From Burkholderiales bacterium (GTDB lineage Bacteria > Pseudomonadota > Gammaproteobacteria > Burkholderiales > JAEUOS01), in NCBI GenBank assembly GCA_036271855.1, contig DATAZV010000384.1, positions 1 through 48,588 of the forward strand: 48,588 nucleotides of DNA, given 5' to 3'. The translations under genes and the position numbers were made by a program. This document shows positions 10,940 to 40,748 of the stretch, piece after piece. Each line of letters starts with the position of its first letter. Position 1 is the first letter of the stretch. The notes beneath the pieces were generated by a model, which was not told where the DNA came from, made no database searches, and saw only the letters and a program-made list of their open reading frames with translations.

Positions 10940-11371
10940 ATGCCTTTGGACACCACGCAGGACAAACCGGCCAGGCACGAAGCGGCCCGGCACGAACCGG
11001 CCAAAAGCGGACCGGCCAACAGCGAACTGGTGAGCGGCCGCGTGGTGGACCACGCGGTGCGCTATGCCGCGAGCAGCTTTGTATCGCAAATGTCGCTGGT
11101 TACGGCCTTCGTGCCCGGCCTGATCGCATGCGTGGTGGTACCGGCCTTTCCGCTGCGCTACGCTGCCCACCCCGCGCTCGCCGCGCTGATCGTCCAATGC
11201 CAGCCGCTGTTTGTCGTGGCGTCGGTGGCCTTGGTGGCAACCTGGTGGCTGCTGAAACGGCAGGAGCGCGATGCGGGCCTGTCGGTGTGGGGCCAGCTGA
11301 CGGCGTTGTGGGCGGTGGAGGTGGTGTTGGTGCTGCTGCAGATTTGGGGCGTATACCCGGGCGCGGGCTAA
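10940..11371 (+). CDS. Hypothetical membrane protein (143 aa)
   Basis: Sits 11 nt after the previous ORF. A polar N-terminus with duplicated ARHE(A/P)A is followed by three hydrophobic segments. Third-position G/C bias is high and the Shine-Dalgarno is weak. Confidence 0.55.
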   Translation: MPLDTTQDKPARHEAARHEPAKSGPANSELVSGRVVDHAVRYAASSFVSQMSLVTAFVPGLIACVVVPAFPLRYAAHPALAALIVQCQPLFVVASVALVATWWLLKRQERDAGLSVWGQLTALWAVEVVLVLLQIWGVYPGAG

Positions 11372-12054
11372 GGAGCGGCGGCCGACTCGCCATTGGCCTG
11401 GCGGCAATGCGGCGGCAGGCGCTTTTCCGGCGTGCCGGTACACACCCAGTCCAGGCGGCGCGCGCCTGCGGCCGCGCCCGGCTCGGTTGCCGCTGCGCTG
11501 ACCACCCGCGGGGTGAGGACGACGTTCACCTGCAGCGCTTCGCTTTGCAGCGTGATGACGCCGTCGTTGCCGACGCCGGCGCGCGTCAGGCGGGGATTGG
11601 GCGCGATCGCCATGCCCTCGCCGATGCGGGCCAGCGGCGTGCCCGAATAAAAGCGCGTGCGCATTTTTTCCTGCGCTGGCAGCGCACTCTCGATGACGGC
11701 GGTGGTCGCCACCCAGGCGGCCGGCGCGGCAGGCATCACGATGTAGATGCCCGCCGCCGCCAGCACGGCGCCGGCGAACAGGCGCAGCGCCGCCGCAGCC
11801 ATGCGCCGCGCTTTTCTCGTGCTGGTGTTGCCGCCGCCTGCGCCGGCGCGCGCATCCATCGTCGCCTTGACCCAGCACCAGCCAAGCGCGATCAGCAGAA
11901 ACAAATAGGGGATCGCGGGCTGGCCGAACAAGTCCTCGTCCGTCACCCAGGCCAGCAGGCAAAGCGCCAGCATCAGGCCGAGCAGCAGCCCGCTCAGGGC
12001 GACGCCGATGCGCGCCAGGCGCTGCGTGGACGGGGAGGGAATGGTTTCGCTCAT
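11368..12054 (-). CDS. Membrane protein with a pilin-like C-terminal domain, no prepilin leader (228 aa)
   Basis: Three N-terminal hydrophobic segments. The C-terminal tail ...RRLDWVCTGTPEKRLPPHCRQ resembles the W-x-C...K-x-LP-x-x-C-R disulfide loop of type IVa pilins. Third-position G/C bias is high and no clear SD is present. Confidence 0.55.
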   Translation of the reverse strand: MSETIPSPSTQRLARIGVALSGLLLGLMLALCLLAWVTDEDLFGQPAIPYLFLLIALGWCWVKATMDARAGAGGGNTSTRKARRMAAAALRLFAGAVLAAAGIYIVMPAAPAAWVATTAVIESALPAQEKMRTRFYSGTPLARIGEGMAIAPNPRLTRAGVGNDGVITLQSEALQVNVVLTPRVVSAAATEPGAAAGARRLDWVCTGTPEKRLPPHCRQANGESAAAP

Positions 12055-12097
12055 GGCGTGTGCTCGGGGCGTTGGCTTCGGGCCGGGTGCCTATAGC

Positions 12098-12883
12098 CTA
12101 CAGCAAGCCCTTCGCCATGCCGCCATCCACATTGATCGCCTGCCCCACCAGGTAGGAAGCCTGGCGCGACATCATGAAGCAGGCCACGGCGGCGATTTCG
12201 CCGGGCTGGGCGAAGCGCTTGAGCGGAATGTCGGCGGCGAAGCGCTGCACCACCTGCTCTTCCGTCAGCCCTTCCCTGGCGTTGAAATCCGCCGCGCGGT
12301 CTTTCCACAACTTGGTCCAGGTGCGCCCGGGGCAGATGGCGTTGACACGCACGCCTTCGGGCGCGAGTTCATCCGCCAATGTTTTCGCCAGCGCCAAAAT
12401 GCCGGCCTTGTGCACGTTCGACACCACCTGCTGGGGGTGCAGCATTTTCGCGCCGGCGCCGCCGAAAAACAGCACGCGCGCATCGCGGCCTTTTTTCAGC
12501 GCCGGCAGCAGGCCGCGCAGCAGGCGCACCGGCCCCAGCACGTTGAAGGTGTAGTTCTCCATCCACTTCGCGTCGGTGAGTTCGCCGAAGGGCGCGCGGT
12601 AGCTGCCGCCGGTGGCCAGCACCAGGCCGTCGAGGGGCTGGTTGTCCCAGTCGACGATCAGCGCTTCGGTGGCGGCCTCGCTCAATACGTCGATGATGCG
12701 GGTTTCCACCGCGTGGCCGGTGGCGGCGCTGATGCGCTTGGCGGCCGCCTCGATGGCCGCGGCGTTGCGCGAGGCGATGGTGACGCGCGCGCCTTCGTGC
12801 GAAAGCGCCAGCGCGGTTTCATAGCCTATGCCTTCGCTGGCGCCGATCACCAGGATGCGGTCGCCTTCGATGCCGAGATTCAT
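12098..12883 (-). CDS. Short-chain dehydrogenase/reductase (SDR) family oxidoreductase
   Basis: N-terminal VIGASEGIGYETA (TGxxxGxG-type Rossmann motif), a central NVHKAGILALAKTLADEL region where K replaces the usual catalytic Y, and the C-terminal GQAINVDGG. Confidence 0.85.
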   Translation of the reverse strand: MNLGIEGDRILVIGASEGIGYETALALSHEGARVTIASRNAAAIEAAAKRISAATGHAVETRIIDVLSEAATEALIVDWDNQPLDGLVLATGGSYRAPFGELTDAKWMENYTFNVLGPVRLLRGLLPALKKGRDARVLFFGGAGAKMLHPQQVVSNVHKAGILALAKTLADELAPEGVRVNAICPGRTWTKLWKDRAADFNAREGLTEEQVVQRFAADIPLKRFAQPGEIAAVACFMMSRQASYLVGQAINVDGGMAKGLL

Positions 12884-12967
12884 GGGGTGCCCTTCGTGCG
12901 CTGTGCGAAAGGGCGAATTCTAGTCCGGCGGCGCGCCGGCGATGCCTGATCGGCCGGATGCGCCTGC

Positions 12968-13186
12968 TTAAGGGCTGCCGTCCCCGCCTTGGTCCGACAC
13001 TACCAGCCCGGTGACGCTGTAGGCCCCTTCGCCGGTGCCGGCCGGATTGCGCACCACCTGGTGCAGTGCGTGGCAATGGATGCAGGCGCTGGAAAGGGCG
13101 AGCTTATGCGGGTCGACGATCACGCTCAAGGTGGAGGTGAGGCCGCAGTCCGGGTTCAGGCACTTGAACAACTGGAGCAGGGCCAT
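12968..13186 (-). CDS. Small four-cysteine protein (72 aa), possible zinc-ribbon-like fold
   Basis: ATG at 13186 with GGAGAC 9 nt upstream. Very high G/C third-position bias. CLNPDC...(20 aa)...CIHC gives a CX4C/CX2C arrangement. It is the first clearly coding ORF downstream of the sigma-54 promoter at 13502-13517. Confidence 0.65.
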   Translation of the reverse strand: MALLQLFKCLNPDCGLTSTLSVIVDPHKLALSSACIHCHALHQVVRNPAGTGEGAYSVTGLVVSDQGGDGSP

Positions 13187-13443
13187 TACGCGAGGTCTCC
13201 GCTCAGGCCGCCCAGGCCGCCCAGACCGCGCAGACCGCGCAGACCGCGCAGACCGCGCAGACCGCGCAGACCGCGCAGACCGCGCAGACCGCGCAGACCG
13301 CGCAGACCGCTAAGACCGCTAAGACCGCTAAGACCCGCAGCGCCCCGGCGCGCGCGCATGGGCGCGCCGCGTGCGGCAGCAGCGCCATTTGCCTGGTCGG
13401 GGGGGCTTGGGGGAAGCCCGCGATCACCGCCGTTCATGCCCAC
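13186..13443 (-). CDS. Candidate repeat peptide, (Gly-Leu-X)15 frame; an alternative (Cys-Ala-Val)9 frame is at 13203..13388
   Basis: A GTG at 13443 lies 7 nt after AAGGA, and the stop overlaps the next ATG as TAATG. Unit variants are synonymous for Gly and Leu in this frame. The alternative frame (MALLPHAARPCARAGALRVLAVLAVLAVCAVCAV...WAAWAA) has better G/C third-position bias. The track ORF start at 13518 lies inside the promoter and is unlikely. Confidence 0.35.
   Translation of the reverse strand: MGMNGGDRGLPPSPPDQANGAAAARGAPMRARRGAAGLSGLSGLSGLRGLRGLRGLRGLRGLRGLRGLRGLRGLGGLGGLSGDLA
13201..13335. repeat. 15-copy 9-bp tandem repeat (core gcgcagacc x9, flanked by 3+3 variant units)
   Basis: Counted directly: gctcaggcc, gcccaggcc, gcccagacc, then nine perfect gcgcagacc, then three gctaagacc. 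The unit length is a multiple of 3, so copy-number change keeps any frame. Confidence 0.95.
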
Positions 13444-13501
13444 AACAACATCCTTGCTCAATTGCCCCCCGGGATTGCAATACCGCTTGTGGCAGCAGTC
13501 T

Positions 13502-13517
13502 TGCAGGAGGCATGCCA
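13502..13517 (-). promoter_or_regulatory. Sigma-54 (-24/-12) promoter
   Basis: The minus strand reads TGGCATGCCTCCTGCA. The GG and GC doublets are spaced exactly as in the consensus TGGCACG-N4-TTGCW. Predicted transcription start is near 13491, reading toward lower coordinates. Confidence 0.75.
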
Positions 13518-13534
13518 AAAATAGAAGGGTTAAA

Positions 13535-13547
13535 AATCAATAGTTTG
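13535..13547. promoter_or_regulatory. IHF-binding site candidate
   Basis: AATCAATAGTTTG matches WATCAA-N4-TTR exactly. It is embedded in an A/T-rich patch midway (about -50) between the UAS palindrome and the -24/-12 element. Confidence 0.55.
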
Positions 13548-13568
13548 TCTCCGTGAACTGGCTCGAAT

Positions 13569-13607
13569 TGTCCTTTTTGCGGACACCCCCTGTCCGCAAA
13601 AGAGACA
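13569..13607. promoter_or_regulatory. Upstream activator sequence candidate: 39-bp palindrome with two TGTC-N9-GACA units
   Basis: tgtcctttttgcggaca-ccccc-tgtccgcaaaagagaca. The inner 11-bp arms are perfect. It is centred about 97 bp upstream of the predicted start and begins 8 nt after the stop codon of the adjacent NtrC-family activator gene. Confidence 0.6.
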
Positions 13608-13614
13608 ACGCCCT

Positions 13615-14937
13615 TTAGTGCTCGATGCCGTATTGCTTGAGCTTGACGTAGAGCAACTGGCGGCGGATGCCGAGCAGGCGCGCGGCTTTGGCGCGATTGC
13701 CGCCCGCTTGTTGCAGGGCCTGGTTGATCATCAGCTTTTCCAGCCGGGTGACGGCGGTGTGCAGGTCGCTGTCGAGCAGGCCGCGCAATTCGTCGGAGCG
13801 CGAAGAGGTGAGCTGGATTTCGCCGGCGTCGATCACCGCGCCGCGCACCAGCACCGAGAGGCGCTCCATCAGGTTTTTCAGCTCGCGCACATTGCCCGGC
13901 CAGTCGTGGCCGGCGAGCACGTGCGCGGCGCCCGGGGTGAGCACCTTGGGAGCCTCGCTGGCGCGGCCGAGAAAGTGGCGCGCCAGCGGGATCAGGTCCG
14001 GCAGGCGCTCGCGCAGCGGCGGCACGTGGATCGGCACCACGTTCAGGCGGTAGTACAGGTCTTCGCGAAAGCGCCCGGCGCGCACCGCTTCGACCAGGTC
14101 GCGGTTGGTGGCGGCGATCACCCGCACGTCCACCGCCACCGGGGCGCTGGCGCCCACCGGCAGCACTTCGCGCTCCTGCAGCACGCGCAAAATCTTCGCC
14201 TGCATCGGCATGCCCATGTCGCCGATTTCATCCAGGAACAGGCTGCCGCCGTGGGCGGCGCGAAAGCAGCCGGCGGTGTCGGAAACCGCGCCGGTATAAG
14301 CGCCCTTGACGTGGCCGAACAGTTCGCTCTCCAGCAGGTCGGCGGGAATAGCCGCGCAATTGACGGCGACGCAGGCGCGGCTGGCGCGCAGGCTTTTTTC
14401 GTGCAGCACGCGCGCCACCAGTTCCTTGCCGGTGCCGGTCTCCCCGGTGATGAGTACGGTGGCATCGCTGACGGCGGCCATGCCGATGCGCTTTTGCACT
14501 TCGCGCATCGACGGGCTCTCGCCGATCAGCGCGTCGGTGAGCCCCGGCGCGGGCGCGGCCGGCGCCACCCCCTTGGAGCGCAGGGCGCGGTCCACCACCG
14601 TGAGCACGTCGTTGCGCCCGACCGGCTTGGAGAGATGGTCGAAGGCGCCCAGGCGCATTGCGTCGATGGTGTTTTCGCTCGACGAATAGGCCGTCATGAT
14701 GACCACCGGCAATTGCGCGAAGCGGGTCTGCGCCTTGATGCCGCGCAGCGCGTCCAGCCCGCCCATGCCGGGCATGCGCAGGTCGAGGAACACCAGGTCC
14801 TGCTCGGAAGATTGCAGGGCGCGCAGCGCGGCCTCGGCGTTGTGCGCCTCGGCGGCGAGGTGGCCGGCGCCGGCCAGCGTTTCGCGCAGGCCCTCGCGAA
14901 AGGCGGCGTCGTCGTCGGCAATCAGGATACGTGCCAC
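13615..14937 (-). CDS. NtrC-family sigma-54-dependent response regulator (REC + AAA+ + Fis-type HTH)
   Basis: A GTG at 14937 gives VARILIADDD...FLDLRMPGMGG (receiver). Then GETGTGKELVAR (Walker A), GHVKGAYTGA (GAFTGA-type sigma-54 contact loop), LFLDEIG (Walker B) and the C-terminal NRAKAARLLGIRRQLLYVKLKQYGI HTH. The track start at 15252 is an over-extension into the kinase gene. Confidence 0.9.
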   Translation of the reverse strand: MARILIADDDAAFREGLRETLAGAGHLAAEAHNAEAALRALQSSEQDLVFLDLRMPGMGGLDALRGIKAQTRFAQLPVVIMTAYSSSENTIDAMRLGAFDHLSKPVGRNDVLTVVDRALRSKGVAPAAPAPGLTDALIGESPSMREVQKRIGMAAVSDATVLITGETGTGKELVARVLHEKSLRASRACVAVNCAAIPADLLESELFGHVKGAYTGAVSDTAGCFRAAHGGSLFLDEIGDMGMPMQAKILRVLQEREVLPVGASAPVAVDVRVIAATNRDLVEAVRAGRFREDLYYRLNVVPIHVPPLRERLPDLIPLARHFLGRASEAPKVLTPGAAHVLAGHDWPGNVRELKNLMERLSVLVRGAVIDAGEIQLTSSRSDELRGLLDSDLHTAVTRLEKLMINQALQQAGGNRAKAARLLGIRRQLLYVKLKQYGIEH

Positions 14938-15959
14938 GGAATCTCCAGCTCGAAACGCGCACCGATGGCCACCGGCACGTTGTGCAGGGTGCCGCCGTGC
15001 GCCACGGCGACGGCGCGCGCCAGGGTCAGCCCGAGGCCGACGCCGTCTTTGCGCCCGGTGATGAAGGGCTCGAAAATCTGCTCGCGCACCGAGGGGTCGA
15101 TGCCCGCGCCTTCGTCCTGCACGTGGATGCGCAGGCTGCCGGCGTCGGCGGCCACGCCCAGCTCGATGCGCCCGGCGCGCGGGCTGTGGGCGATGGCGTT
15201 GAGCAGCAGGTTTTCCACCGCGCGGGCCAGGTGGTCGGGGTCGAAGGTCCACGACTCCGGCACGCCCTGGGGAATGAATTCGAGCATCACGCCGGCGGCG
15301 TCGGCCGGCGGCTGCACGCTGGCCAGGCGCTCGCGCATCCAGGCGTCCAGCGGCACGCGGCCGGGGGAGAGTTTCAGCGCCTGCGTCAGGCTCAGCAGGC
15401 CGGTGAGCAGGCGCTCAAGGCGCGCCACCTGGTTCAAGGTGAAGTCCATCGCCGCGCGCTCGGCGCCGGGCGGGGCGTGCAGCGCGTTTTCGACTTTCAG
15501 GCGCACCGCCGCCAGCGGGTTGCGGATCTCGTGCGCCAGTCCGGAGGCCAGGCGCCCGAGGGTGGCCATGCGCTCGGACTGCGCCAGCTTTTGCGACAGT
15601 TCCTCGTTGGCCGCGTGCTCGCTGCGCACGCGCCCGTTGAAGTCGTTCAGCGCGGCGACGATGCGGTCCAGCTCGGCGTCGCCGGAAAGCTCGAAGTCGC
15701 GCAACTGCACCAGGGTGTGGGCCGAGAGGGTGCGCTCGATGCCGCCCAAGGCCCCGCGCCAGGTGGCGAACAGGCGCGCCAGCCACAGGCTCATCAGCAG
15801 CGTCAGCGCCAGCAGAAGCATCAACGCGGCCATCATCAGCGTGTAGGCGGTGCCGCCGCTTTCGCGGGACAGGCCGAACATCAGGGCGCAAATCAGCAGG
15901 CAGGGCAAAGCCGCCCCGGCCCAGAGAATTGCGTTGCGTGTCCACAGTGCCTGCTTCAT
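14922..15959 (-). CDS. Sensor histidine kinase, intramembrane-sensing type (2 TM with ~9-aa loop, HisKA, HATPase_c)
   Basis: MKQALWTRN... has two TM helices separated only by SRESGGTAY. H-box LAHEIRNPL, N-box LLLNAIAHS, G-boxes DEGAGI and GVGLGL. The 3' end overlaps the regulator start by 16 nt. The start is uncertain (15959 chosen; no SD). Confidence 0.85.
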   Translation of the reverse strand: MKQALWTRNAILWAGAALPCLLICALMFGLSRESGGTAYTLMMAALMLLLALTLLMSLWLARLFATWRGALGGIERTLSAHTLVQLRDFELSGDAELDRIVAALNDFNGRVRSEHAANEELSQKLAQSERMATLGRLASGLAHEIRNPLAAVRLKVENALHAPPGAERAAMDFTLNQVARLERLLTGLLSLTQALKLSPGRVPLDAWMRERLASVQPPADAAGVMLEFIPQGVPESWTFDPDHLARAVENLLLNAIAHSPRAGRIELGVAADAGSLRIHVQDEGAGIDPSVREQIFEPFITGRKDGVGLGLTLARAVAVAHGGTLHNVPVAIGARFELEIPWHVS

Positions 15960-18464: not shown

Positions 18465-19211
18465 CTACTTGCCGGCGAGCTGGCGCTTGGCGCGCTCGGC
18501 CGCGTAGGCCTTGGCGGCCTTGATCAGCGCGGCGTCGCCCGAGGCCATGGCGTCCTTGAGCGACTTCTGGCCGTATTCCATGTTGTTCATCAGCTTGCCC
18601 AGGTCCAGGGTGCTGCCGAACTTCTTTTTATATAGCGACTGAAAGTCCGACAGCAGCGATACCTCGGCAGCCGAGGGGTGGCTGGAGTGCCGATGATGTT
18701 CGGCGGCGGGCGCTGGTGCTGCCGGGGGCGGCGCCGCCTGGGGTGGCTGCGCCTTCGGCGGCTGGGCTTGCGGTGGCTGCGCCTTGGGCGGCTGCGCTTG
18801 CGATGGCTGGGCCTGCGGCGGCTGCGCCTTGGGTGGCTGCGCTTGCGATGACTCCGCCTGCAGCGGCTCCAGTTGCAGCGGCGCCATCGGTGGCGGGTCC
18901 GTCTGCAAGGGCTCCAGTTGCAGCTCCTGCGGTGCCCCGGCATCGCCGCTTTCCAGCAGTTTCAGCTTGCGGGTTTTTTCCAGGGCCTGCATCGGCGTCA
19001 GGGTGATGGACTCGATCGCTTCCTGCCGCTCGACCTGCAGGTGGGCGGCCATGTTGCGCAGGGTCTGGTTTTCGCTTCGCAGGGCGCGTTCGAAAGCCTG
19101 GAAGGCATAAAGATCGTCGGCGATGAATTCATCGACGTCGAAGGGTTCTTTAAAGACACCGACATACAGCGCGTGAAAGCGCATGTAGCGTTCTTCAATG
19201 GAGTCGGACAT
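18465..19211 (-). CDS. Hypothetical protein with a central Pro/Gln/Ala-rich repeat (248 aa)
   Basis: Start MSDSIEERYMRFHALYVG (ATG at 19211). The middle is LQLEPLQ x2 followed by QAQPPKAQPPQAQPSQAQPPKAQPPQAQPPKAQPPQA, encoded by 15-bp tandem units at about 18735-18850. The C-terminus is helical and Lys-rich. No signal peptide. Confidence 0.6.
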   Translation of the reverse strand: MSDSIEERYMRFHALYVGVFKEPFDVDEFIADDLYAFQAFERALRSENQTLRNMAAHLQVERQEAIESITLTPMQALEKTRKLKLLESGDAGAPQELQLEPLQTDPPPMAPLQLEPLQAESSQAQPPKAQPPQAQPSQAQPPKAQPPQAQPPKAQPPQAAPPPAAPAPAAEHHRHSSHPSAAEVSLLSDFQSLYKKKFGSTLDLGKLMNNMEYGQKSLKDAMASGDAALIKAAKAYAAERAKRQLAGK

Positions 19212-19532
19212 GGTGTGGCGATCTTGCGTGCAGTGCGGCCGGCAAAGGGGCAATGTACAACAGACGGGGCGGCGGTAACAGCGGAAACGGCAGTCTCGCC
19301 GCGAACGGAAGGCAAGGCCGCGTGCTGCTGACTGTGCAATGGCTTGCCCGGGCCAATGGTAGGCAGCGGCAGGCGCCGTGTCCAGTGCCGCGTATCGCCA
19401 TTTAAAGCAAAGTAACAATCTGGACCAGCCATGCCGGAATCAAGAATCAACATTGTTCCGGCGTGGCGCGCAGGTTCATCCGCCCGATTGCCCGGTCCCC
19501 TTGTCTTCAATCGACCCGTTCAATCGACCCGC

Positions 19533-39808: not shown

Positions 39809-40602
39809 GCAGGCGCCGCCGGTGTGGGTGTCGCGGGCGCGGACGCGGGCGATGTCGCAGGCGTTGCGGGCGCCGATGCCTGCGCAGCCGCTGTTGCCTG
39901 GTGTGCGGCGCCGAAGGCCGCCACGTGCGCTTCGATCAGCGTGCGGTCGAACAGCCCGGCGGGGCGCTCGCGGCTGGCCAGGCATTCGACGAAGGGCTGG
40001 AAGCGCTCCAGGCTCACTGTATACAGGCGCATCAGTTCGACGATGGGCTCGGCGTGGTCGTCCACCCGCATGTCCAGCGCCGGGTAGTCCCGCCCGTTGT
40101 AGATCAGCAGCGCGGCGGCCTGCTTGCCGCGCTTGTCGCCGCCGGCCGCCTCACCCGCGGCCAGCGCCGCCAGCAGGCGCAGCGCAAACGGCTGCGCGGC
40201 GTTTGCATCATAGGCTTGCGCGGTGGCCTCGACCACCTGCGGCCCGGCCAGCATATTGCCCGCAACGGAGTAGCCCGCGCGCAGCAGGTGGCCGCTCCAG
40301 GGCACGCACTCTGCGCCGGTGTGCGCGGCGCCGCGCCCCTGCGCGTCGATCAGGTGCACTTGCCGGTGCGCGCTGCCGGCGTCGCCCGCCAGCAGTTCGG
40401 CCAGCAGCCCGGCCGGCTCGCGCCTGGCCGCCATGCCCTCCAGCGCCGGCGCCGCCAGCAAGGGGTTGAGCAGGGCCTGGGTGGAAAGCGCGCCGACCGC
40501 GCTGCGGGCGTGCGGGCACAGGGCGCCCACCGCGAAAAACCGGCTCGCGATGGCCACCCCAAAGGCGCCCGAAGCATCCCGCGCGACGATCGACCAGGTC
40601 AT
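39805..40602 (-). CDS. DUF1028-family (Ntn-hydrolase-like) protein, first gene of the peptide-transport cluster
   Basis: The N-terminal MTWSIVARDASGAFGVAIASRFFAVGALCPH... matches the MT[FW]SIVARD start I recall for DUF1028. The Ala/Pro/Thr-rich C-terminal tail overlaps the next gene's start. Confidence 0.8.
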
Positions 40603-40660
40603 ACCGCTTCCTCAAAAAAGGCAGCGCGATGCGCCGCCCCGATGTCGCTTTGCCGACCCT

Positions 40661-40748
40661 GTTTTGCAAACCCGTTTGCAAACCCGTTTGCAACCCCGCT
40701 TTGCAACCCCGCTTTGCAACCCCGCTTTGCAACTCCGCTTTGCAACTC
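40661..40748. repeat. 7-copy 12/13-bp tandem array with a TTTGCAA core
   Basis: gttttgcaaaccc gtttgcaaaccc gtttgcaacccc gctttgcaacccc gctttgcaacccc gctttgcaactcc gctttgcaactc. It lies 59-146 bp upstream of the DUF1028 start, in a 369-bp divergent intergenic region. Confidence 0.9.

Follow-up and report, generated by a model that had tools for sequence, protein, structure and literature searches.

Based on a comparison with related metagenomic loci, we describe a 9-bp tandem array on the minus strand of a 48,588-nt stretch of DNA from a Burkholderiales bacterium (contig DATAZV010000384.1; 48.6 kb, 66.8% G+C; hereafter the window). The array (13201..13335) lies between a sigma-54 promoter and a small gene encoding a 72-aa protein, and it is a real, reproducible and ordinary in-frame minisatellite expansion in a candidate leader open reading frame (ORF) rather than a new kind of gene. 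On balance, we read the whole as a recent, slippage-type, in-frame expansion within a leader ORF that would head a sigma-54 operon. An earlier note on this DNA, made from the sequence alone, had seen conflicting signals across the array, namely a collagen-like Gly-Leu-X peptide in one minus frame (frame A) and a hydrophobic Cys-Ala-Val peptide in another (frame B). The comparison with relatives favors the Gly-Leu-X frame, leads us to reject Cys-Ala-Val and shows the tract itself to be a recent add-on.

The biological value of the locus is modest. It offers an unannotated leader ORF, conserved in its position, that comes first in a rare sigma-54 operon with an orphan 72-aa product, together with a dated example of a single-triplet Gly-X-Y tract arising from two proto-units. 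If the peptide were functional, this would be a clean case of de novo birth of a repeat domain, which is unlikely on present evidence.

The interval from the Shine-Dalgarno (SD) motif of the leader ORF to the 72-aa gene is covered by four lineages. One is represented by the window and by L094, a contig from an independent Joint Genome Institute (JGI) metagenome that is 99.78% identical to it over 7184 nt (16 mismatches, no gaps). The other three are L001, L003 and L004, metagenome contigs bearing close relatives of the 72-aa protein. L001 is the nearest of these, with a nucleotide identity of 90.8% in the activator gene and 94% in the gene for a short-chain dehydrogenase/reductase (SDR). The control region was compared across the same five loci (window, L094, L001, L003 and L004), and tandem repeats were called across the window by Tandem Repeats Finder (TRF).

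Structure and origin of the 9-bp array

TRF delimits the array at 13199-13340 (period 9, 15.9 copies, 94% matches) with a score of 200, the highest of the window, and a parse into units resolves it into 15 copies of 9 bp at 13201..13335. Read along the minus strand from 13335 to 13201, these are GGTCTTAGC three times, GGTCTGCGC nine times and then GGTCTGGGC, GGCCTGGGC and GGCCTGAGC, in agreement with the earlier description of a perfect nine-unit core flanked by three variant units at either end. Its copies are arranged head-to-tail and are similar far beyond chance, nine of them being identical, which is the trait of a minisatellite. Because the independent contig L094 carries the same 15 units, variant units included, the array is not an assembly artefact.

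The array is missing from L001, L003 and L004, the three other lineages with coverage of the site: 275 nt separate the SD motif from the downstream ATG in the window, as opposed to 155, 149 and 132 nt in these contigs, respectively. At the homologous site L001 has just two proto-units (GGC TTG AGC CGC CTG AGC), and L003 and L004 have none. Since these relatives keep the frame-A ORF without the array, and L001 retains two proto-units, the array has almost certainly arisen as a lineage-specific, in-frame expansion of the 9-bp unit from about two proto-units. The sequence comparison dates this expansion: it is younger than the separation from the L001 lineage and older than the ~0.2% divergence that now distinguishes the window from L094. 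The earlier note had held that orthologues lacking the repeat would point to an untranslated leader. The repeat is indeed missing from L001, L003 and L004, yet such a leader is not implied because the orthologues retain the frame-A ORF itself.

Copy number is 15, ~2 or 0 between lineages at ~80-94% nucleotide identity and equal at 99.78%. Variation in copy number, as suggested earlier, is seen between lineages, but not between the two near-identical samples. That the unit length preserves the reading frame is confirmed by the 9-bp unit and by the length difference of 120 nt to L001. The statement that every frame is open across the repeat holds for the nine perfect units in all six frames, but not for the full 15 units, within which stops occur in three of six frames: TAG in the third minus frame and TAA in one plus frame, both at each of the three CTTAGC units, and the TGA within unit 15 at which frame B terminates.

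Bacterial intragenic repeats typically have units divisible by three, which applies to all those examined in L. pneumophila (PMC2639597). The array resembles such intragenic variable-number tandem repeats (VNTRs) in its head-to-tail, near-identical copies with a unit divisible by three, in its homogeneous core with degenerate edges, and in a length that differs between lineages. Unlike them, it is located in a putative leader ORF instead of an established protein gene, and its copy number is equal in the two near-identical samples at hand. The genome tolerates other in-frame coding minisatellites, since a 15-bp array called by TRF at 18727-18868 sits in frame within a real gene (ORF 18465..19418, minus strand). 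There, a 45-bp super-unit accounts for A-Q-P-P-K, A-Q-P-P-Q and A-Q-P-S-Q units in the central part of a protein (~250 aa) that is otherwise ordinary.

As a separate observation, three contigs of JGI sample 3300031251 (L002, L007 and L093) break in or beside the interval of the leader ORF. Position 1 of L002 coincides exactly with the first proto-unit (GGCGGCTTGAGC...), position 1 of L007 lies 8 nt inside the 72-aa gene, and L093 ends (position 1791) within the enhancer palindrome described below. These breaks might reflect population heterogeneity or a repeat at the site in those lineages.

Frame A as a candidate leader ORF

The candidate upstream ORF (uORF) in frame A extends over 13186..13443 on the minus strand, from a GTG at 13443 (alternatively an ATG at 13437) to a TAA at 13188-13186, and comprises 85 codons. 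Its start context and its junction with the next gene check out as the earlier note had given them: the GTG (13443-13441) follows 7 nt after the SD AAGGA (13455-13451), and the TAA overlaps the ATG of the 72-aa gene (13186-13184) as TAATG. The proposal of a small ORF in this frame gains from the fact that ORF, start context and stop/start junction recur in other lineages. Indeed, the SD (13451..13455, minus strand) is part of a 13-nt block, TTGAGCAAGGATG, that is invariant in all lineages; a GTG lies 4-7 nt beyond AAGGA in four of four lineages; and the ORF is retained at 34-46 codons in L001, L003 and L004. In the window, L001 and L003, frame A is the only frame without a stop from the SD to the downstream ATG. 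The junction with the 72-aa gene is TAATG in the window, L094 and L001, and ATGA, a different configuration, in L003.

Substitutions were analyzed over 87 nt aligned without gaps (~29 codons) in three related sequences. Changes at the third position of frame A account for 10/21, 15/36 and 15/37 of the substitutions. For the ratio of nonsynonymous to synonymous change (pN/pS), frame A gives the lowest values of the three frames, 0.60-0.77, followed by frame B (0.94-1.13) and frame C (1.2-1.7); the 72-aa gene has 0.50-0.88. As had been pointed out before, two of the three sites that vary among the array units are synonymous when read in frame A. The array reads (G-L-S)3 (G-L-R)9 (G-L-G)2 G-L-S in this frame, and the product in the window would be very basic (isoelectric point, pI, of 12) without a hydrophobic segment. 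Across lineages, the predicted products have 34-85 aa, are mostly basic and share a loose core, G-x-(R/G)-G-L-x-P-x-P...A-(N/D)-G-A-A.

Several observations speak against this reading. The interval is covered by four lineages only, and in one of them, L004, a TAG ends the uORF 15 nt short of the ATG. With ~29 codons and three related sequences, neither the phase signal nor pN/pS is statistically significant. The openness of frame A is not significant by itself in DNA of 67% GC, where dinucleotide shuffles preserve it in 36-81% of trials per locus. The G+C content at third codon positions (GC3) is 0.68 in frame A versus 0.86 for the genes of the window, the codon score is negative, and the frame uses codons that are rare in window genes (GGT, 5% of Gly; CTT, 6% of Leu). 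No gene caller recorded this ORF, or one in another frame of the interval, either in the window or in any orthologue. Finally, each of the four loci has a purine-rich, SD-like motif that precedes the 72-aa ATG by 9-10 nt, and since the 72-aa gene has this motif of its own, coupling to the uORF may not be needed. Weighing both sides, we consider that frame A is probably translated, with moderate and circumstantial support.

The competing frame B, which would give a hydrophobic M..(VLA)3(VCA)9 peptide including the (Cys-Ala-Val)9 run, starts at 13427 or 13388 and ends at 13203 on the minus strand; the ATG at 13388 and the stop at 13203 are placed correctly in the earlier note. It is open over 61-74 codons in the window, with a GC3 of 0.89-0.93 that had been taken to fit this genome better. 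This advantage is confined to the window: no frame of the orthologues has genome-typical GC3, and the highest value in L001 belongs to frame A (0.80). Moreover, GC3 and codon statistics are unfit for choosing a frame over a tandem array, because they effectively repeat one observation 15 times; the GC3 advantage of frame B is void since a single 9-bp unit has been counted 15 times. Frame B also breaks down in the orthologues: L001 has four stops in it, L003 has two, and L004 lacks the ATG. In addition, its pN/pS is ~1, it has no conserved SD, it reads TTA (1% of Leu codons in window genes) in three units, and the variation between units is non-synonymous in this frame and includes a stop codon. 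We therefore reject frame B as a real alternative, its translation being barely conceivable. Two plus-strand candidates were rejected as well: the A-Q-T frame has the best codon score (+15) yet no start codon, and the P-R-R ORF (12989-13543) has GC positions atypical for coding and runs antisense to the 72-aa gene and the sigma-54 transcription unit.

In frame A, Gly occupies every third residue without interruption over ~17 triplets (G-A-A, 15 x G-L-(S/R/G), G-D-L), and owing to this periodicity the product marginally passes the cut-off of Pfam Collagen (PF01391; 30.6 bits vs 27.2). "Collagen-like" is a compositional resemblance, limited to the Gly periodicity. Triple-helix stability is judged by a proline-rich sequence and/or paired charges (PMC4565658); the tract contains no Pro and no acidic residue, and its 9 Arg per chain are without counter-charge. 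Pfam, NCBIfam and hydrophobicity analyses of the 85-aa product gave no signal peptide, membrane segment, anchor or flanking domain, and the collagen-adhesin models of NCBIfam score ~20 bits vs cut-offs of 325-500. Nor is the tract conserved at variable length in the orthologues (~2 units in L001, none in L003 and L004). The unusual collagen-like product that had been envisaged is not supported, given the lack of the tract in three of three other covering lineages and the missing proline, signal peptide and flanking domain.

Among known kinds, the Bucl proteins of Burkholderia come closest, with their VNTR tract of a single Gly-X-Y triplet. In Burkholderia, single-triplet Gly-X-Y tracts arise by repeat accumulation within a gene, and small Bucl proteins with such tracts exist, some of them without signal peptides (PMC4565658); similar tracts are found in B. 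anthracis BclA and L. pneumophila Lcl (PMC4565658, PMC2639597). Like these, the array is a tandem in-frame repeat with Gly at every third residue and one or two dominant triplet types, appears to have accumulated within a gene, differs in copy number between lineages, and occurs in a GC-rich, Burkholderiales-like host. Unlike Bucl proteins, the carrier is an unannotated leader ORF of 85 codons without a non-collagenous domain, membrane segment or signal peptide, its tract is G-L-R without proline or charge pairs and is missing from the orthologous ORFs, and both the peptide and its folding into a helix would be hypothetical.

Bacterial leader ORFs coupled in translation to the following gene, such as the uRBS/uORF set of S. 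meliloti (PMC13285730) and the copper-responsive uORF of Bordetella (PMC9426467), resemble the frame-A ORF in being short leader ORFs with their own SD, in having a stop that lies on or next to the start codon of the first conserved gene, and in being conserved in position and weakly so in peptide sequence. By comparison, the 34-85 codons found here are long for a regulatory uORF, the leader is sigma-54-dependent with no evident sensing mechanism, and translation and coupling are putative.

Two further features overlap the start of the uORF. Within 13434-13460 (minus strand), the TTGAGCAAGGATG block, found likewise in L001, L003 and L004, reads GCAAGGAUGU as RNA. This resembles the high-affinity consensus of CsrA/RsmA, RUACARGGAUGU. 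In addition, a mini-ORF, ATG TTG TTG TGG GCA TGA (13451..13434; M-L-L-W-A-stop), begins within the SD and overlaps the frame-A ATG at 13437 with its TGA. The mini-ORF is identical in L001 and reads M-W-L-stop in L003.

Sigma-54 control, proposed mechanism and rival explanations

Along the minus strand, the stop of an activator gene is followed by an inverted repeat, a site for integration host factor (IHF), a promoter, a leader ending in AAGGA-N7-GTG, and the array. Because these control elements lie upstream and the operon genes downstream, the array is 5'-proximal in a minus-strand sigma-54 transcription unit, and transcription from this promoter very probably passes through it. The -24/-12 promoter (TGGCATGCCTCCTGCA; 13502..13517, minus strand) is the sole match in the window (expected 0.23), has its -24 GG and -12 GC elements at canonical spacing, and is found at the same position in L001, L003, L004 and L094. 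An IHF consensus site (AATCAATAGTTTG; 13535..13547, plus strand), likewise the sole match in the window (expected 0.23), is located between the putative enhancer and the promoter, 30 nt upstream of the -24 element in five of five loci. The putative enhancer, or upstream activating sequence (UAS), is an inverted repeat at 13568..13608 (TTGTCCTTTTTGCGGACA / TGTCCGCAAAAGAGACAA) with 18-nt arms that are 89% complementary and separated by a 5-nt gap. Its half-site has no other occurrence in the window, and its center lies 71.5-72.5 nt upstream of the -24 GG in all five loci. Equally constant is the spacing of 45-47 nt from the -12 element to the SD (5/5 loci), with a nearly invariant leader. We infer from this arrangement that the inverted repeat is the enhancer for the adjacent activator, and likewise that the activator binds there and where exactly the transcript starts.

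The activator itself is a sigma-54 enhancer-binding response regulator of the NtrC/AtoC/ZraR-like type (440 aa; 13615..14937, minus strand), as identified by NCBIfam and by Pfam Response_reg, Sigma54_activat (5.9e-70) and HTH_8. Its gene is overlapped by that of an AtoS/ZraS-like sensor histidine kinase with HisKA and HATPase_c domains (345 aa; 14922..15959, minus strand), a gene model adopted by synteny with L094. In many activator relatives (40-58% identity), a same-strand match to the sigma-54 promoter follows the activator gene at a distance of ~100-170 nt, with unrelated target genes, as in L012 (5406-5421), L024, L036, L038, L043, L062 and L087. Since the relatives share this promoter placement, the layout of an activator gene followed by its own target promoter looks general for the clade. 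The genes driven by activator relatives at <=61% identity are unrelated to those described here, e.g., a gene for a secreted protein in L012.

On the basis of textbook architecture, we propose that the activator would bind the palindrome, that DNA bending by IHF would assist, and that the sigma-54 promoter would fire into the repeat. Ribosomes would begin at the conserved SD/GTG and read frame A, and termination at TAATG could help to load or reload ribosomes on the 72-aa gene, i.e., translational coupling. Selection would then act mainly on reading through to the junction and not on the peptide sequence, and the C-terminal part of the uORF would be unconstrained in length; with a unit divisible by three, the 9-bp repeat could consequently expand without cost. 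Slippage may thus have raised the copy number from ~2 to 15 harmlessly. The by-product would be an 85-aa peptide, very basic and probably disordered, of which 45 residues form a Gly-Leu-(Arg/Ser/Gly) tract. Coupling with a near-neutral peptide is a proposition for and against which we give equal weight.

In a rather unlikely alternative, the array would be a neutral, non-coding minisatellite in an untranslated 5' leader, and frame A would be open simply because the sequence is GC-rich. This would agree with the outcome of shuffling, with the lack of genome-typical GC3 in any frame of any lineage, with the negative codon score of an ORF never called by gene finders, with a poorly conserved peptide in an interval whose length varies freely, and with the SD-like motif that the 72-aa gene has for itself. 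It leaves unaccounted for, however, that a consensus SD with a GTG at 4-7 nt is kept in all lineages within the invariant 13-nt block, that the frame set by this SD/GTG ends over the next ATG in two configurations (TAATG and ATGA), that the other two frames carry stops in several lineages, that a third-position excess and a pN/pS below 1 are seen in frame A only, and that neither the unit length nor the 120-nt difference from L001 shifts the frame. Quite improbable is a tuning or contingency locus, in which frequent slippage would set the strength or timing of expression of the 72-aa/SDR cassette via uORF length, the rare GGT/CTT codons or mRNA structure. Nine perfect inner units with degenerate edges are the pattern expected of an active slippage tract, the array separates the promoter from the first conserved gene, its copy number differs between lineages, and the first proto-unit is the exact starting point of contig L002, which comes from another population. 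Yet the same 15 units are found in two independent samples that differ by 16 single-nucleotide polymorphisms over 7184 nt, gain or loss of 9-bp units cannot act as an on/off switch of the frame, shuffled controls fold as well as the transcript, and other lineages manage without the array.

It is very improbable that the uORF encodes a functional small protein whose Gly-Leu-Arg tract serves as a collagen-like or polyproline-II trimer, or as a polycationic binder of nucleic acids or polyanions. The Gly periodicity over ~17 triplets, the Pfam Collagen score, the pI of 12 and the existence of small single-triplet Bucl proteins, some without signal peptides (PMC4565658), would suit such a role. Against it stand the missing tract in three other covering lineages, the lack of proline and of acidic partners for 9 Arg per chain, the lack of a signal peptide, anchor or flanking domain, the low NCBIfam collagen-adhesin scores and the rare codons throughout. 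A genuine sigma-54-induced small protein, with the birth of a Gly-X-Y (Gly-Leu-Arg) domain whose new tract gained a role, is likewise very unlikely. If true, the domain would have been born by growth from ~2 units to 15 within <10% nucleotide divergence, and the tract might act as a polycationic or polyproline-II-like peptide or as a length-dependent "timer" of the coupled translation of the orphan zinc-ribbon gene.

RNA-based regulation was considered separately. No Rfam match was obtained at E <= 1 within 12800-13800, the minimum free energy (MFE) of the transcript fold does not differ from that of shuffled controls (z = -0.25), and an alifold of the leader from four sequences shows almost no covariation. 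With Rfam, MFE and alifold all without signal, a structured RNA or riboswitch is unsupported. The frame-A codon runs (9 CGC, 12 CTG, 13 GGT) recall attenuation leader peptides of the his/leu/thr type. An attenuator was rejected, as no terminator or antiterminator is present (no terminator-like site in 12000-14000). Further differences from attenuation leaders are that the codon runs are missing in the orthologues, that the downstream genes (zinc-ribbon protein, SDR, membrane protein) are not for amino-acid biosynthesis, and that the promoter is an activator-dependent sigma-54 promoter.

Downstream genes and a further repeat

The first gene downstream of the uORF (12968..13186, minus strand), the ATG of which overlaps the uORF stop, encodes the 72-aa protein, of CxxC...CxHC zinc-ribbon type, with a GC3 of 0.88 and a codon score of +22.8. 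The protein is very rare: among 5.8 billion clustered proteins, three close relatives were recovered, and an exhaustive profile search yielded three distant ones. The scan of 185,579 species-representative genomes retrieved no orthologue of the gene, and a metagenome scan for more orthologues returned the known contigs again, plus one truncated contig. The distant zinc-ribbon relatives occur in unrelated contexts and without the leader; in one of them, L092, the gene of the 72-aa family abuts an unrelated small upstream gene, the stop of which lies 2 nt before its ATG. Neither Pfam nor NCBIfam gave a match for the 72-aa protein, and there was no PDB sequence match. An AlphaFold2 model is all-beta with modest confidence (pLDDT of 64.5), and Foldseek with this model returned zinc-ribbon matches at non-significant level only (E > 2). 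From these results it can be described as a small, all-beta, zinc-ribbon-like protein. Its family is an orphan one, with roughly seven relatives among billions of predicted proteins searched.

It is followed by the SDR gene (12098..12883, minus strand; Pfam adh_short_C2, 1.5e-43), which is syntenic in L003 and L094, and by a gene for a predicted membrane protein of 228 aa (11368..12054, minus strand) without a family match and syntenic in L094. The latter is the last gene of the operon, with convergent plus-strand genes beyond. None of the four products (uORF peptide, 72-aa protein, SDR and 228-aa protein) was recognized by PADLOC as belonging to a known defence system or as a phage protein.

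Elsewhere in the window, an intergenic array of ~8 units of 12-13 bp is found at 40646-40746 (consensus CGCTTTGCAACCC, TRF score 137), each unit containing TTTGCAA. It is located 45-145 nt upstream of a minus-strand gene starting at 40602 and could represent regulator-binding sites.

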